Below are positions 39,073-45,218 of a stretch of DNA of 64,000 nucleotides, piece after piece. The translations under genes were made by a program, and so were the position numbers. Origin of the DNA: an uncultured beta proteobacterium (lineage in GTDB: Bacteria > Pseudomonadota > Gammaproteobacteria > Burkholderiales > SG8-41); NCBI GenBank assembly GCA_963778865.1, contig CAVZWF010000005.1:144233-208232 (forward strand). The letters are read 5' to 3'. The notes beneath the pieces are model-generated. The model did not search any database, was not told the DNA's origin, and saw only the letters and a list, made by a program, of their open reading frames with translations. Every line of letters starts with the position of its first letter. Position 1 is the first letter of the stretch.

Positions 39073-40718
39073 ATGTCCGGCCAGGACGCAAAACAATCGG
39101 CGCATGCGGGCTCGCGCGGCTTCGCAGTGCTGCAGGATCCCGACGCTGAACAAAGGGACGGCATTTACCGAAAAAGAGCGCGAAGCGCTCGGATTGCGCG
39201 GCTTGCTGCCGCCGCATGTGACCAGCCAGGACGAGCAGGCCACGCGCGTGCTGGTGAACCTGCGCAAGCTGTCCGACCCGCTCGAAAAATTCGTCGCGTT
39301 GAATGCGCTGCACGACCGCAACGAGGCGCTCTTTTTTCGCGTGCTGTGCGACAACATCGACGAGATGCAGCCGCTCGTCTATACGCCGACGGTGGGGCTC
39401 GCGTGCCAGAAGTTCGGACTGATTTTCCAGCGGCCGCGCGGCATTTTCATCGGCGCCAACGACCGCGGGCGCGTGGCGGAGGTGCTGCGCAACTGGCCGT
39501 ATCCCGCGCAAGCTGATCGTCGTCACCGACGGCGAGCGCATACTCGGGCTCGGCGATCTCGGCGCCAACGGCATGGGCATTCCGGTCGGCAAGCTGTCGC
39601 TCTACACCGCCTGCGCCGGCATCCATCCGCAGGCTGTGCCTGCCGGTCACGATCGACGTCGGCACCAACAACGAAACGCTGCTCAGGGACCTGTTTTACG
39701 TCGGGTTGCGCCAGCATCGCATCACCGGCGCGCCCTACGACGAACTGATCGAGGAATTCATTACCGCCGCGCACGAGGTATTTCCCGGCGTGTTGATCCA
39801 GTTCGAGGACTTCGCCAACCACAATGCGTTTCGCCTGCTGCACAAGTATCGCAGCCGCATCTGCACTTTCAACGACGACATCCAGGGCACGGCGGCGGTC
39901 GCGCTGGCGGGAATTTTCTCGGCGCTGCGCGTTACCGGCGGGAAGCTGACCGACCAGAAAATACTGTTTCTCGGCGCCGGCGAAGCCGCGACCGGCATCG
40001 CCGATCTCATCGTGTCGGCGATGATGGCGCAAGGCCTGTCGGAAGCCGCGGCGCGCCAGCGCTGCTGGCTGGTTGATTCGAAGGGCCTGGTGGTCAAGAG
40101 CCGCACGGATCTCGCGGCGCACAAAATGCCCTATGCGCACGAGCACGCGCCTGTCGGCGATTTTCTCACGGCGATCAAGGCGCTGAAGCCGACCGGCATC
40201 ATCGGCGTGGCCGCGGTCGGCGGCACGTTCACGCAGGAAGTGCTGGAGGAGATGACGCGCCTCAACGAGCGGCCGATCGTATTCGCGCTGTCCAATCCGA
40301 CTTCGCAGGCGGAGTGCGACGCGGAGCAGGCCTACCGCCACACCGGCGGGCGGGCGCTGTTCGCCTGCGGCAGCCCGTTCGACCCCGTGCAGTTCAACGG
40401 CAAGACGTTCGTGCCGCGGCAGGGCAACAACTCCTACATTTTCCCCGGCGTCGGGCTGGGCGCGATTGTCAGCGGCGCGCGCCATGTTACGGACGATATG
40501 TTCATGGCCGCCGCGCACGCGCTTGCGCACCTCGTAAGCGAGTCGGATCTGGAGCAGGGCAGCCTGTACCCCGCGCTGCCGCGGATTCGTGAAGTCTCGG
40601 CGCATATCGCGAAGGCGGTCGCCGACACCGCCAGCCAAGAACGGTCTCGCCGGCAAGCCGCCGGCGCCGGATATGCTTGAAGCACATCCAGTCGCAGATG
40701 TATGACCCGCACTATTGA
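39073..40718 (+). CDS. maeA: NAD(P)-dependent malic enzyme, three or four frameshifts
   Basis: ORFs 39073.., 38975..39748 ([24 protein letters not shown]), 39573.. and 39706..40680 ([15 protein letters not shown]; [10 protein letters not shown]). GAGGAG RBS before ATG 39073. Confidence 0.85.
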
Positions 40719-40743
40719 CATGACGGTCATCCGGAGTACGGAC

Positions 40744-41331
40744 ATGATGTTCCAGGTGCGCATACACGGCAGGGGCGGACAGGGCGTGGTGTCGGCGGCT
40801 GAAATGCTGTCGATGGCGGCGTTCGACGAGGGCCGTTACGCGCAGGCGTTTCCGAGTTTCGGTTCGGAGCGCATGGGCGCGCCGGTCATGGCGTTCTGCC
40901 GCATCGACGACAAGGAGATCAGGCTGCGCGAGCCGGTGTTGAATCCCGACGCGCTGATCATCCAGGATCCGACGTTGCTGCATCAGGTCAATCTGTTCAG
41001 CGGCGTGCCGCAGGGCGGTTATATCCTGATCAATTCCACGCGCAGTTTCGACGAACTCGGCATCGGCGAATTCGTGCGCAATTTCGATCATCACCACCTG
41101 TGCACGGTGCCGGCGACCGAACTCGCGCTGAAGCATGTCGGGCGGGCGCTGCCGAACGCGGCGCTGCTCGGCGGATTTGCCGCCATCAGCGGGCAATTGC
41201 AATTCGATTCGGTCGCCAAGGCCATCCAGGCCAAGTTTCCGGGCAAGGTGGGCGCAGCCAACGTCGCGGCGGCGCGGGCGGCCTATGAATTCACGTTGTC
41301 CGCCATCAACGCAGGAGCAGCCCATGCTTAA
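40744..41331 (+). CDS. 2-oxoacid:ferredoxin oxidoreductase gamma subunit (intact)
   Basis: MMFQVRIHGRGGQGVVSAAEMLSMAAF...FPSFGSERMGAP is typical of Por/Vor/Kor gamma subunits. Confidence 0.8.
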   Translation: MMFQVRIHGRGGQGVVSAAEMLSMAAFDEGRYAQAFPSFGSERMGAPVMAFCRIDDKEIRLREPVLNPDALIIQDPTLLHQVNLFSGVPQGGYILINSTRSFDELGIGEFVRNFDHHHLCTVPATELALKHVGRALPNAALLGGFAAISGQLQFDSVAKAIQAKFPGKVGAANVAAARAAYEFTLSAINAGAAHA

Positions 41332-42588: not shown

Positions 42589-43581
42589 ATGCCAGTACAA
42601 CCCGTCAAGTTTTATCAGACCGGCACCTTTACCGTCGGCAACCGGCTGCTCGCCGACGCCGAGCGCACCGTGCAGGCCAACATGCGCCGCACCAACTCGC
42701 TCAATTCCGGCCATCGCGCGTGCCAGGGTTGCGGCGAGGCGCTCGGCGCGCGCTACGCGATAGACGCCGCGATGCAGGCCACGGGCAATCAGGTCATGGC
42801 CGTCAATGCGACGGGCTGCCTCGAAGTCTTCTCGACGCCTTATCCCGAAACGTCGTGGCAGATTCCGTGGCTGCATTCACTGTTCGGCAATGCGGCAGCG
42901 GTCGCATCGGGCGTGGCGGCGGCGTTGCGGGTGAAGGGCCGCGCCGGCGTCAAGGTCATTGCGCAGGGCGGCGACGGCGGCACCACCGATATCGGCTTCG
43001 GTTGCCTGTCGGGTATGTTCGAGCGCAACGACGACGTGCTCTACATCTGTTACGACAACGAGGCGTACATGAATACCGGCGTGCAGCGCTCGAGCGCAAC
43101 ACCGCCGGCGGCGCGCACGGCGACCACGATGGCGGTGGGCCAGAATCCCGGCAACGTGTTCGGCACCGGGAAAAACGTGCCGCTGATCGCGATGGCGCAT
43201 CACATTCCGTACGTCGCCACCGCATCGGTGGCGAACCTGCGCGATCTCGAGGTCGAAGGTCATGCGCGCGATGGGCATCGGCGGGTCGCGCTACATACAC
43301 ATTCACGTGCCGTGCCCGCTCGGCTGGGGTTCGGCGCCGGCCGATACGATCAAGATCGCGCGCCTTGCCGTCGAATCCGGATTGTTCCCGTTGTTCGAGG
43401 CCGAAAGCGGCGAGATCACCGGGCGCTACAAGCTGCGCCGGCGCGTGCCGGTCGAGGAATATCTGCAAGCCGCAGCGGCGCTTTGCTCATTTGTTCGGCA
43501 AGCACGCCGGACGTGCATACGATCGCGTCGATTCAGGCCATCGCCGACCGCAACGTGCGCACGTTCGGGCTGGCGGAGTAG
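42589..43581 (+). CDS. 2-oxoacid:ferredoxin oxidoreductase beta (TPP-binding) subunit, two frameshifts
   Basis: ORF 42589..43581 with pieces in 43262... HRACQGCGE and GDGGTTDIGF...CYDNEAYMNTG TPP motif. Confidence 0.85.
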   Translation: MPVQPVKFYQTGTFTVGNRLLADAERTVQANMRRTNSLNSGHRACQGCGEALGARYAIDAAMQATGNQVMAVNATGCLEVFSTPYPETSWQIPWLHSLFGNAAAVASGVAAALRVKGRAGVKVIAQGGDGGTTDIGFGCLSGMFERNDDVLYICYDNEAYMNTGVQRSSATPPAARTATTMAVGQNPGNVFGTGKNVPLIAMAHHIPYVATASVANLRDLEVEGHARDGHRRVALHTHSRAVPARLGFGAGRYDQDRAPCRRIRIVPVVRGRKRRDHRALQAAPARAGRGISASRSGALLICSASTPDVHTIASIQAIADRNVRTFGLAE

Positions 43582-43590
43582 AGGCGCCGC

Positions 43591-45218
43591 ATGAAAAAAC
43601 CATTCGCGATTACGCTCGATCCCGGCTCCAGCCTCGCCAACCATACCGGCACCTGGCGCAACAACCGGCCCGTCTATGTCGACCGGCTGCCGCCGTGCAA
43701 CAACGCATGCCCGGCCGGCGAGGATATCCAGGGCTGGCTCTATTACGCGGAAAGCGGCGAATACGAGCGCGCGTGGCGCGAACTGGTAAAGAACAATCCG
43801 ATGCCTGCGCTGATGGGACGCGTGTGCTATCACCCCTGCGAAAACGCCTGCAACCGCGCGAGCCTCGATGAGGCGGTCAGCATACATGCCGTCGAGCGCT
43901 TTCTCGGCGACGAGGCGTCGCAAGCAGGGCTGGAAATTCGAAATCACCGCGCAGCCGTCGGGCAAGCACGTGCTGGTGGTCGGCGGCGGGCCGTCGGGAT
44001 TGTCGGCCGCGTATCATCTCGCGCGGCTCGGGTCACCAGGTCACGATACACGAGGCGGGGCCGCTGGCGGGCGGCATGATGCGCTTCGGCATTCCGAAGT
44101 ACCGGCTGCCGCGCGACGTTCTCGACGCGGAAGTGCAGCGCATACTCGACATGGGCATTACGTTCAAGCTCAATACGCGCGTCGACAATATTCTCGACAC
44201 GATGAAAGCGGGCGGTTTCGATGCGGCGTTTCTGGCGGTCGGTGCGCATGTCGCGAAACGCACGGATATTCCGGCGCGCGACGCCACCCGCATACTCGAT
44301 GCCGTCAGCGTGCTGCGCGGCATGGAAACCGATGCGCGACCCCAGCTCGGACGCCGCGTGGTCGTCTATGGCGGCGGCAATACGGCGCTCGACGTCGCGC
44401 GCACCGCCAAGCGCCTCGGCGCAAGCGAAGCGGTGATCGTCTACCGGCGTACGCGCGAGCAAATGCCGGCGCACGACTTCGAACTGCAGGAGGCGCTCGA
44501 CGAAGGCATCATGGTGAAGTGGTTGAATACCATCACGCGCGTCGAGGACACCACCTTTACCGTCGAAAAAATGGTGCTCGACGACAAGGGCTTTCCGCAG
44601 CCCACCGGCGAGTTCGAGACGATAGAGGCCGACACCCTGATACTCGCGCTCGGGCAGGACGTGGATCTGTCGTTGCTCGACAAAGTGCCGGGGCTCGCCA
44701 TCGAAAAAGGCACGGTCAAGGTCGACCGCAACATGATGACCGGCTACGCGGGCATTTTCGCCGGCGGCGACATGGTGCCGTCGGAACGCACCGTGACGGT
44801 CGCCATCGGGCACGGCAAAAAGGCCGCGCGCAATATCGACGCGTGGCTGCGCGGCAGCATCTACAAGGCGCCGCAGAAGCACGAGGTGGCGCGCTTCGAT
44901 CTGCTCAATACCTGGTATTACACGGACGCGCCCAAGACCGTGCAGCCGGTGCTCGACATCATCCGCCGCCAGTCGAGCTTCGACGAGGTGCTGGGCGGGC
45001 TCGATGAATCCAACGCGTTGTTCGAAGCGCGTCGCTGCCTGTCGTGCGGCAACTGCTTCGAATGCGACAACTGCTACGGCGTGTGCCCCGACAATGCCGT
45101 CATCAAGCTCGGTCCCGGCAAGCGGTTCGAATTCAATTACGACTACTGCAAAGGTTGCGGCATGTGCGCGGCCGAATGCCCGTGCGGCGCGATTACGATG
45201 GTTCCGGAAACGATCTGA
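43591..45218 (+). CDS. GltD-like NAD(P)H-dependent FAD oxidoreductase fused to a 2x[4Fe-4S] ferredoxin domain, two or three frameshifts
   Basis: ORFs 43591.., 43868.. and 44076..45218. CNNACPAGEDIQ...CYHPCENACNR; VVGGGPSGLSAAYHLARLG; C-terminal CLSCGNCFECDNCYGVCP...CKGCGMCAAECP. Confidence 0.8.

Follow-up and report, generated by a model that had tools for sequence, protein, structure and literature searches.

The four-subunit pyruvate:ferredoxin oxidoreductase (PFOR) of the Methanosarcina acetivorans type (Ma PFOR, PDB 9bt4) is an (alpha-beta-delta-gamma)2 assembly with three clusters per catalytic unit (PMC12337175). Other 2-oxoacid:ferredoxin oxidoreductases (OFORs) reduce pyridine nucleotides: the NADP+-reducing KGOR of Azoarcus evansii has a flavoprotein subunit in the GltD/NfnB superfamily (Ebenau-Jehle et al. 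2003, as cited in PMC10134865), and the phenylglyoxylate:NAD+ oxidoreductase PadEFGHI of Azoarcus/Aromatoleum, which reduces NAD+, combines the POR-type subunits PadE (gamma), PadF (delta), PadG (alpha) and PadI (beta) with a fifth, PadH (PMC5109826). A GltD-like module also occurs as an insert (residues 102-565) in a NuoG-like host, in StnC of the Sporomusa Stn transhydrogenase (8oh5), where it provides a non-bifurcating entry from NADPH through FAD to the clusters (PMC10482914). This article describes a five-gene locus at positions 39073-45218 of a 64,000-nucleotide (nt) stretch of DNA from an uncultured beta proteobacterium (contig CAVZWF010000005.1), here called the window, in which malic enzyme (ME) stands before an OFOR whose delta subunit is predicted to be interrupted by an NADP(H)-dependent flavoprotein cassette. 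For comparison, the Azoarcus KGOR has a two-subunit core of the KorAB type that acts on 2-oxoglutarate, and its flavoprotein is a separate subunit; PadH is a flavoprotein as well; and the PNO of Euglena and Cryptosporidium, a pyruvate:NADP+ enzyme, is a homodimer of single chains in each of which a PFOR is joined to an FMN/FAD domain of the cytochrome-P450-reductase type.

The region holds five genes on the same strand, in the order ME, OFOR gamma, alpha, beta and Fe-S flavoprotein, as determined from the listing of open reading frames (ORFs) and from Pfam and NCBIfam scans (Table 1). The genes are separated by 25, -8, 9 and 9 nt, and the block is bordered by ccmA upstream and by a short-chain dehydrogenase/reductase (SDR) gene downstream, both on the opposite strand. 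With such spacings a separate delta gene cannot be accommodated, and the intact orthologous loci have none called either, in agreement with the initial annotation, which had taken the genes as one unit with an OFOR that lacks a free delta gene. That annotation was also right about five tightly packed co-directional genes as far as families, strand and coordinates are concerned; it overlooked that only gamma is unbroken as written and that the other four genes carry frameshifts, which are treated below (lengths are given after correction). The preferred reading, to which a probability of about 0.6 is assigned, is that of a single FNR-type-regulated operon encoding ME and a four-protein pyruvate-type oxidoreductase wired to NADP+, not to free ferredoxin.

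The features of a delta subunit, namely the TIGR02179 ferredoxin core and an N-terminal arm, exist solely as the two ends of the 541-amino-acid (aa) flavoprotein. The C-terminal core matches TIGR02179 (PorD_KorD) with 61 bits in the window piece and 67.2 bits in the orthologue of locus L001, a Usitatibacteraceae metagenome-assembled genome (MAG), against a cut-off of 60.05, and the PorD_Arch model matches both protein ends, with profile positions 5-30 falling on flavoprotein residues 5-30. The core alone aligns with residues 31-83 of the 85-residue PFOR delta 9bt4_G (E = 2.4e-13); when residues 1-33 were joined in silico to the core, the resulting 89-residue chimera aligned with residues 3-83 (E = 1.8e-24). 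Because this alignment runs across both segments, the flavoprotein is interpreted as a complete PorD delta, neither missing nor replaced, which is split by an insert of about 450 residues. The arm (residues 3-30 of 9bt4_G) carries the signature PGSxLANxTGxWRNxRPVY, and G12, S14-N17, T19, G20, W22, R23, P27 and Y29 are invariant in 32 homologues. The description of a GltD-like Fe-S/FAD-NAD(P)H protein of about 540 aa with a C-terminal 2x[4Fe-4S] domain fits the corrected length and the Fer4_20, Pyr_redox_2 and dicluster matches. The accompanying proposal that the C-terminal domain stands in for delta was sound in that the flavoprotein carries the delta function and fell short in that a whole PorD, arm and core, is found rather than a replacement.

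The full protein belongs to NF009410/PRK12771 ("NAD(P)-binding protein"): the match of the L001 orthologue takes in profile positions 17-565 of 566 and reaches 793 bits (cut-off 516), and the 380-aa piece readable in the window gives 520.9 bits by itself. Residues 32-493, which include the cassette, have as their best PDB matches 9bov_A and StnC 8oh5_C (E = 1e-86 to 9e-95). NfnB, GltD and DPD begin with a leader of the form "...F.EV...EA.RCL.C-x4-C-x3-CP"; the Fe-S domain of the flavoprotein begins at "PPC36NNAC40P", and its leader, "SFDEV...EARRC482LSC485", sits after the flavin domains and immediately before the PorD core. When the leader is joined to the N-terminal domain, Cx2Cx4Cx3CP is restored, and across this junction the sequence aligns gap-free with NfnB (4ylf_B 16-122), GltD (6s6s_G 24-131) and DPD. 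The same split topology is shared by StnC 8oh5_C, 9bov_A and 9n5u_A, and the insert is best described, from its motif order, as a circularly permuted NADPH-FAD-2[4Fe-4S] cassette of the GltD/NfnB type. Within it C36, C40, C79, C83, C87, E102, C482, C485 and Y284-R285-R286 are invariant in the 32 homologues, as are the FAD motif GxGxxG (G131-G136) and the NADP(H) motif GGGNTAxD. One cassette cluster would be ligated by both insert ends and would abut the delta clusters. YRR binds phosphate in NfnB and is a hallmark of the NADP-specific DsrL-2 enzymes (PMC7596348), and its invariance points to NADP+ as the acceptor.

The comparison with characterized enzymes places the catalytic core close to Ma PFOR and the cassette close to StnC. 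With 9bt4, the locus shares close homologues of alpha (E = 1.5e-113), beta (E = 6e-88) and gamma, the pyruvate-site residues, and a delta whose arm and core are about 55% identical to 9bt4_G; it differs in that the cassette interrupts delta and in that the likely acceptor is NADP+ instead of free ferredoxin. The analogy with the NADP-reducing Azoarcus KGOR drawn in the initial annotation is apt, since that enzyme too uses an extra subunit of the GltD/NfnB superfamily for NADP+ reduction (PMC10134865), but here a POR-type core (alpha-beta-gamma) is combined with a flavoprotein that forms part of delta. The NCBIfam Pad models match gamma (E = 1e-42), alpha (6e-81), beta (8e-59) and the C-terminal core (3e-8), although with scores much lower than those of the Por models and short of the Pad cut-offs; in Pad, moreover, delta and flavoprotein are separate genes and the substrate is another. 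No PadH model is among the 25 best NCBIfam matches of the flavoprotein, for which reason PadH may be a different type of flavoprotein.

StnC and 9bov_A resemble the flavoprotein in their permuted topology, in which "PPC..ACPA" stands at the start and the "EAxRCLxCG" leader follows the flavin domains. StnC, too, carries its module inside a host Fe-S protein. StnC differs in its NuoG/FdhF-like host, which is not PorD, in K170, where the flavoprotein, NfnB and GltD have Glu, and in a HydBC-like bifurcating partner, of which there is none here. DsrL, the NAD(P)H:acceptor oxidoreductase of dissimilatory sulfite reductase, shows the same order of N-terminal Fe-S domain, FAD/NAD(P) domains, linker and C-terminal two-cluster ferredoxin, and the same YRR logic for NADP(H) (PMC7596348). 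It is a partner of DsrAB, whereas the flavoprotein departs from two of the features by which DsrL is defined (criteria 1 and 3: occurrence with dsrAB, and no linkage to POR/VOR genes), and no dsr gene was found among the annotated neighbours in the window and its relatives. PNO catalyses the net reaction that is proposed here, again with a PFOR and an NADPH flavoprotein, but the fold of its flavoprotein is not related and the two parts are joined at another site. The Vanoni review does not cover OFOR-linked GltD proteins.

The linkage of the flavoprotein to the catalytic genes is nearly constant. In 66 of the 68 related loci with enough flanking sequence, gamma, alpha and beta lie directly upstream of the flavoprotein gene in the same order, a physical linkage as in the NAD(P)+-reducing OFOR class, and beta and flavoprotein overlap by 4 nt in relatives; the co-occurrence of the GltD-ferredoxin fusion with OFOR genes, proposed as a check in the initial annotation, is thus borne out. 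ME is a less regular member. It matches NF010052 (NAD-dependent malic enzyme, SfcA/MaeA type; 413 bits for a 324-aa piece, cut-off 326), with its malic and Malic_M domains distributed over three frames, and it belongs to the unit in 22 loci, which show two gene orders and fall within a single betaproteobacterial group: downstream of the flavoprotein in 16 loci, and upstream of gamma in the window and in the metagenome contigs L081-86. In L085/86 the five-gene block is placed differently relative to the ccm genes, and therefore the five genes move as a unit. The coupling of ME to the OFOR, as first proposed, holds here and in this group, but most of the family is without it.

A TTGAT-N4-ATCAA box of the FNR type precedes the first gene in both the ME-first and the ME-last arrangement. 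The ME-first boxes are perfect, at -137 in the window (TTGATGTAGATCAA), -129 in L081-84 (TTGATTTGGATCAA) and -127 in L085/86 (TTGATCTAGATCAA), with different spacers and diverged flanks; the ME-last boxes, at up to one mismatch, are found before gamma at -52 to -120 nt, in most cases at -79 to -120. The FNR box noted earlier over the operon is thus perfect and kept in orthologous promoters, and regulation by an FNR-type regulator at this predicted site appears probable. By chance, 0.94 boxes with up to one mismatch would be expected in the 64 kb window, and three were counted. Another perfect TTGAT-N4-ATCAA, TTGATCGCGATCAA, at 13106-13119, lies inside an FtsX-like permease gene and is probably a chance match. 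In L085 and L086, an intergenic tandem heptamer run, (CACCACG)n, occurs at about 2220-2260, upstream of the ME-first box.

The most likely function of the operon would be an anaerobically induced conversion of malate to pyruvate and acetyl-CoA with delivery of electrons to NADP+. At low oxygen, an FNR-type regulator would turn on one transcript and ME would produce pyruvate from malate; alpha and beta would hold thiamine pyrophosphate (TPP) and the proximal [4Fe-4S] cluster, with gamma as the usual accessory subunit. The fourth protein would act as delta, having the PorD arm at its N-terminus, the two-cluster ferredoxin core at its C-terminus and, between them, the permuted cassette with its NADP(H) site, FAD and two [4Fe-4S] clusters, one of which would be built beside the delta clusters by C482 and C485 from one cassette end and C36 from the other, plus E102. 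Electrons would pass from TPP to the beta cluster, the two delta clusters, the two cassette clusters, FAD and NADP+, so that five [4Fe-4S] clusters would wire TPP to FAD. Pyruvate oxidation by NADP+ would be downhill, from about -500 mV to -320 mV, and malate oxidation to acetyl-CoA would give NAD(P)H at both steps. Being on when oxygen is limiting, the operon would bypass the NADH-inhibited pyruvate dehydrogenase complex. The association of the subunits in a physical complex and the direction of the reaction are, like the route itself, predictions from the protein sequences.

Several points weigh against this reading or against its novelty. The core subunits score below the Por equivalog cut-offs (alpha 451/550, beta 345/405, gamma 208/225 for NF040682, NF008819 and NF006321), for which reason no strict orthology to archaeal Por is claimed, and a VOR-like or broader specificity is possible. 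An AlphaFold2 model of an orthologue (P0003), built on a shallow alignment of 27 sequences, had a mean predicted local distance difference test (pLDDT) of 57.6, with values below 50 at residues 1-44 and 427-541. The NfnB-like Glu ligand, E102, is retained, which would be compatible with a more complex flavin chemistry. ME is unlinked in about three quarters of the loci, and a box with up to one mismatch occurs within 400 nt upstream of gamma in just 17 of 60. The status of the frameshifts as artefacts is drawn from the pattern of insertions. As to novelty, NAD(P)-reducing OFORs and the PRK12771 family are already known, and DsrL-like genes beside POR genes are already in print: the authors of the DsrL study noted homologues adjoining POR/VOR genes, the class to which the present flavoprotein belongs, and explicitly excluded them (PMC7596348). 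The module is common, with relatives of the flavoprotein at 74% identity or more in at least 596 stretches of species-representative genomes, a family of more than 8000 protein clusters and an NCBIfam model of its own. The fused-delta architecture appears not to have been characterized biochemically; a limited literature search, which is weak evidence of absence, found no biochemical study of such an enzyme.

The best-surviving alternative, judged unlikely, concerns the substrate: the enzyme would act on another 2-oxoacid (2-oxoisovalerate, other branched-chain, aromatic or glyoxylate-type) and ME would be a neighbour for regulatory reasons only. Gamma matches Pfam POR over its full length (140.7 bits) and TIGR02175 PorC_KorC (191 bits against a cut-off of 81, L001 orthologue), alpha matches PF01855 (236 bits) and PF17147 (76 bits), in two frames as written and contiguously in the corrected 417-aa protein, and the corrected beta contains the TPP motif GDG...NxxYMNTG and the CQGC, GC and PC cysteines, so that the three have the domain make-up of four-subunit POR/VOR-type OFORs. 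Their best-scoring NCBIfam models are Por models, with PorD_Arch the best delta model for the C-terminal core of the flavoprotein; the L001 subunits give 451 bits for PorA_Arch versus 300 for VOR alpha, and 345 for PorB versus 297 for VOR beta. The nearest solved structure is also a PFOR, with 9bt4_B the best PDB match of alpha (E = 8e-84 for the N-terminal 237 aa from the window) and 9bt4_C that of beta (L001 orthologue), and the active-site segments are 60-70% identical to it. In alignments with 1b0p_A and 9bt4_B, alpha keeps the equivalents of Thr31, Arg114 and Ile123 (YPITPQT, NRAIGAP, INIWNDH), which are the pyruvate-binding residues of Desulfovibrio africanus PFOR; oxalate oxidoreductase deviates at two of the pyruvate-site positions (YPIRPYT and F).

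The shortfall from the Por cut-offs speaks for another substrate, as do strong matches to VOR, oxalate oxidoreductase and Pad models, the absence of ME from most loci and the promiscuity that is frequent among POR and VOR enzymes. These are set against the ranking of the Por models, the PFOR-like YPITPQT and R...I, unlike those of oxalate oxidoreductase, and the recruitment of a pyruvate-producing ME into the operon at two different positions. The opinion that the substrate is unreadable from the sequence is thus only partly upheld: pyruvate would be the best guess.

Somewhat less probable still is that the locus encodes an ordinary ferredoxin-dependent PFOR and that the flavoprotein is an adjacent, separate NADPH:ferredoxin or NADPH:acceptor oxidoreductase (DsrL- or SudA-like), or a recycler of soluble ferredoxin. 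In the literature the presumed counterparts in Accumulibacter, CAP2UW1_2510-2512, figure as a PFOR that is highly expressed, works with ferredoxin and is coupled to H2 (PMC5148189), the domain order of the flavoprotein is that of DsrL (PMC7596348), and ferredoxin-type clusters at the surface could still feed external acceptors. A separate role for the flavoprotein is, however, hard to reconcile with an operon that has no other delta, with both delta-specific segments residing on this protein and with a delta being needed in four-subunit PFORs to take electrons from beta. The near-obligate synteny, with overlapping stop and start codons, points the same way.

That the locus is a decaying pseudogene cluster, its frameshifts real, part of a genome-wide gene loss and nothing functional encoded, is very unlikely. 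As written, ME is spread over at least four frames, its malic N-terminal domain over three; alpha lies in two frames, beta leaves its frame and then returns, and the flavoprotein runs over three. Each of these four genes out of five has two to five frameshifts and many other genes of the window are broken, as would be seen in a degenerating genome. Alignment of the DNA with close relatives, first L001 (80% nt identity) and then the closer metagenome contigs L081-84 (94% aa identity for the flavoprotein), showed that 12 single-base insertions explain every break. Deletion of these 12 bases gives proteins of 546, 195, 417, 329 and 541 aa with zero internal stops, which are 89-94% identical to orthologues of 546, 195, 417, 332 and 541 aa (relative to L081, ME 88.6%, gamma 90.3%, alpha 92.8% and beta 93.9%, with ME, alpha and beta corrected). 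The ratio of nonsynonymous to synonymous substitution rates (dN/dS) after correction is 0.06-0.12, with ME at 0.12. A further candidate insertion, at 42562, was rejected as alignment noise in the variable C-terminus of alpha, where the uncorrected frame ends as in the orthologues.

The flanking ccmF/G/H/C/A, modA/B/C, mobB and moaD/E genes carry insertions of the same +1 kind, about one every 400-500 bp; genes for cytochrome c maturation and the molybdenum cofactor, which are essential, are struck at an equal rate. Frame changes elsewhere in the window divide the Pfam domains of RmuC, an EAL protein, glucokinase, an ABC ATPase and CcmF. The error rate outside the operon was gauged from such domain splits and from the closer loci L081-86; whole-window blastn against 80 related loci gave almost no synteny beyond the operon. 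The inserted bases are mostly G or C, outside homopolymers, and no deletions or larger indels were seen in well-aligned coding parts. Orthologous operons of the same order are intact in the independent Illumina-type contigs L081-86, including a relative at 94% identity that is intact in four independent assemblies. Because all changes are +1 and lie outside long homopolymers, correction leaves no nonsense codon, essential genes are hit equally and relatives are intact, the 12 frameshifts are almost certainly sequencing or assembly errors, to judge from this pattern, and the genes would be intact in the organism. Automatic gene calling on this window would accordingly yield fragments and false pseudogenes, and other findings from it need the same insertion check.

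The least likely alternative is a reverse or bifurcating/confurcating system, either an NADPH-driven pyruvate synthase feeding a carboxylating ME (acetyl-CoA to pyruvate to malate) or an Nfn-like electron-splitting flavin, for which the retention of E102, the counterpart of the NfnB proximal-cluster Glu ligand, and the presence of the module in autotrophs such as Gallionella and Sideroxydans could be cited, but NADPH (-320 mV) is too weak for pyruvate synthesis (about -500 mV) without coupling, no second module of the NfnA type (PyrK-like FAD/[2Fe-2S]) or HydBC type is present in the operon (for NfnA, in the window and L081-L086), and the FAD is non-bifurcating in StnC, one of the two closest solved relatives (PMC10482914).

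Table 1. Positions of the operon, its parts and the inserted bases in the window.
Feature	Position	Strand	Support or remark
FNR/CRP-family box TTGATGTAGATCAA	38936-38949		perfect palindromic half-site match, 137 nt before ME start codon
NAD(P)-malic enzyme (SfcA/MaeA type), 546 aa corrected	39073-40718	+	Pfam malic and Malic_M; NF010052
OFOR gamma, 195 aa	40744-41331	+	sole intact ORF of the five; Pfam POR full length; TIGR02175
OFOR alpha, 417 aa corrected	41324-42579	+	Pfam POR_N and PFOR_II
OFOR beta (TPP, proximal [4Fe-4S]), 329 aa corrected	42589-43581	+	Pfam TPP_enzyme_C
Flavoprotein, whole gene, 541 aa corrected	43591-45218	+	C-terminal dicluster ferredoxin domain
Flavoprotein residues 1-33, predicted PorD-type N-terminal arm	43591-43689	+	PorD_Arch profile; 9bt4_G alignment
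Flavoprotein residues 34-487, predicted permuted GltD/NfnB-type cassette	43690-45053	+	Fer4_20, Pyr_redox_2, PRK12771
Cassette sub-site, YRR	44442-44450	+	
Cassette sub-site, CLSC leader at cassette C-terminal end	44931-45053	+	
Flavoprotein residues 488-541 and stop, PorD ferredoxin core	45054-45218	+	two CxxCxxCxxxCP motifs; TIGR02179
ME insertions	39142, 39512, 39629, 40633, 40676		
Alpha insertions	42034, 42082		
Beta insertions	43255, 43466, 43505		
Flavoprotein insertions	43919, 44030		

The NADP-linked operon reading bears on a large group of genes. The family spans Usitatibacteraceae, Casimicrobiaceae, Gallionellaceae, Rhodocyclaceae (including Accumulibacter), Noviherbaspirillum, Rhodoferax, Xanthobacteraceae, Hyphomicrobiales and others, so that both Beta- and Alphaproteobacteria are represented among the related loci, and its members are named in databases "2-oxoacid:acceptor oxidoreductase delta subunit", "glutamate synthase beta subunit-like" or "NAD(P)-binding protein". 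The Accumulibacter locus L077, presumed to be the CAP2UW1_2510-2512 locus, has the same four-gene order, and the Accumulibacter "PFOR" is probably of the gamma-alpha-beta-flavoprotein operon type; the fourth gene, CAP2UW1_2513, was not found mentioned in the literature search. In Accumulibacter UW-1 an intact orthologous locus lies at about 2.894-2.899 Mb of NC_013194. It stands at about even odds that the PRK12771-linked "PFOR" of many Beta- and Alphaproteobacteria, among them Accumulibacter, Gallionella/Sideroxydans, Rhodocyclaceae and Xanthobacteraceae, is a self-contained pyruvate:NADP+ oxidoreductase, which would have arisen by insertion of a permuted NfnB/GltD cassette into delta and in which both insert ends would build one [4Fe-4S] cluster.

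If this is true, models linked to ferredoxin and H2 would be wrong, for instance those of anaerobic redox balance and polyhydroxyalkanoate synthesis in polyphosphate-accumulating bacteria, and the enzyme would supply NADPH directly. There is debate over where Accumulibacter obtains its anaerobic reducing power, and its PFOR genes rank with the most strongly expressed ones (PMC5148189). Behind thousands of genes annotated as "pyruvate ferredoxin oxidoreductase" and as "NAD(P)-binding protein" or "glutamate synthase-like" there is probably a single NADP-linked enzyme, and an NADP-linked annotation alters the electron flow predicted for facultative anaerobes and iron oxidisers. The occurrence of a permuted NADPH-FAD-Fe/S cassette in two unrelated Fe-S hosts, the NuoG-like StnC and PorD, suggests a reusable plug-in module. 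The main value of the locus lies in annotation and in a straightforward enzymological test.

Among the related loci, both synteny exceptions and duplications were observed. In L053, a long-read Rhodocyclaceae MAG, two N-terminally truncated flavoprotein copies (1479-2447, residues 218-541, and 9881-11137, residues 122-541) have no OFOR genes near them; the other exception, L068, has no gamma upstream of alpha. Tandem flavoprotein genes follow beta in L038 (527-3810), the first diverged (59% identity, C-terminal part) and the second typical (77%). In Noviherbaspirillum (L012, L016 and L039, at about 2200-3600) a distant flavoprotein homologue, with 29% identity over 434 aa, lies on the same strand about 3 kb upstream of gamma and about 6.5 kb upstream of the C-terminal part of the flavoprotein. 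A divergent second OFOR alpha-like gene (29-36% identity) is encoded on the opposite strand just upstream of the four-gene module in L045 (4568-5929, -).

In the window as a whole, no tRNA genes or Rfam families were found, and a scan of the operon region for consensus -10/-35 promoters and terminators gave nothing above chance and no convincing promoter. The long antisense and off-frame ORFs of the region have no Pfam match and lack the signature of high GC at third and low GC at second codon positions that is seen in the + strand frames, and are read as shadows of high GC content. Stretches broken by insertions include 11154-11462, 14078-15269, 16912-18467, 18532-19439, 32323-34134, 37413, 38522-38777 and 50504-53449, and the broken EAL protein is of the GGDEF-EAL type. 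The SDR gene next to the operon (45286-45972, -), which separates the flavoprotein gene from moeA, probably has a frameshift or truncation too; its Pfam match begins at profile position 46. It is not at the corresponding place in L081-84, and L085 has a 254-aa SDR beside moeA. A molybdopterin oxidoreductase ORF (26767-29319, +, 850 aa) is free of frameshifts over 2.5 kb, unexpectedly long for the error rate, with its N-terminus seemingly in another frame (26412-26756). It is followed by a gene with a cytochrome b561-like domain (29508-30920), and its context, with ccm, mod, moa, moe and mob genes near, looks like one of anaerobic respiration.

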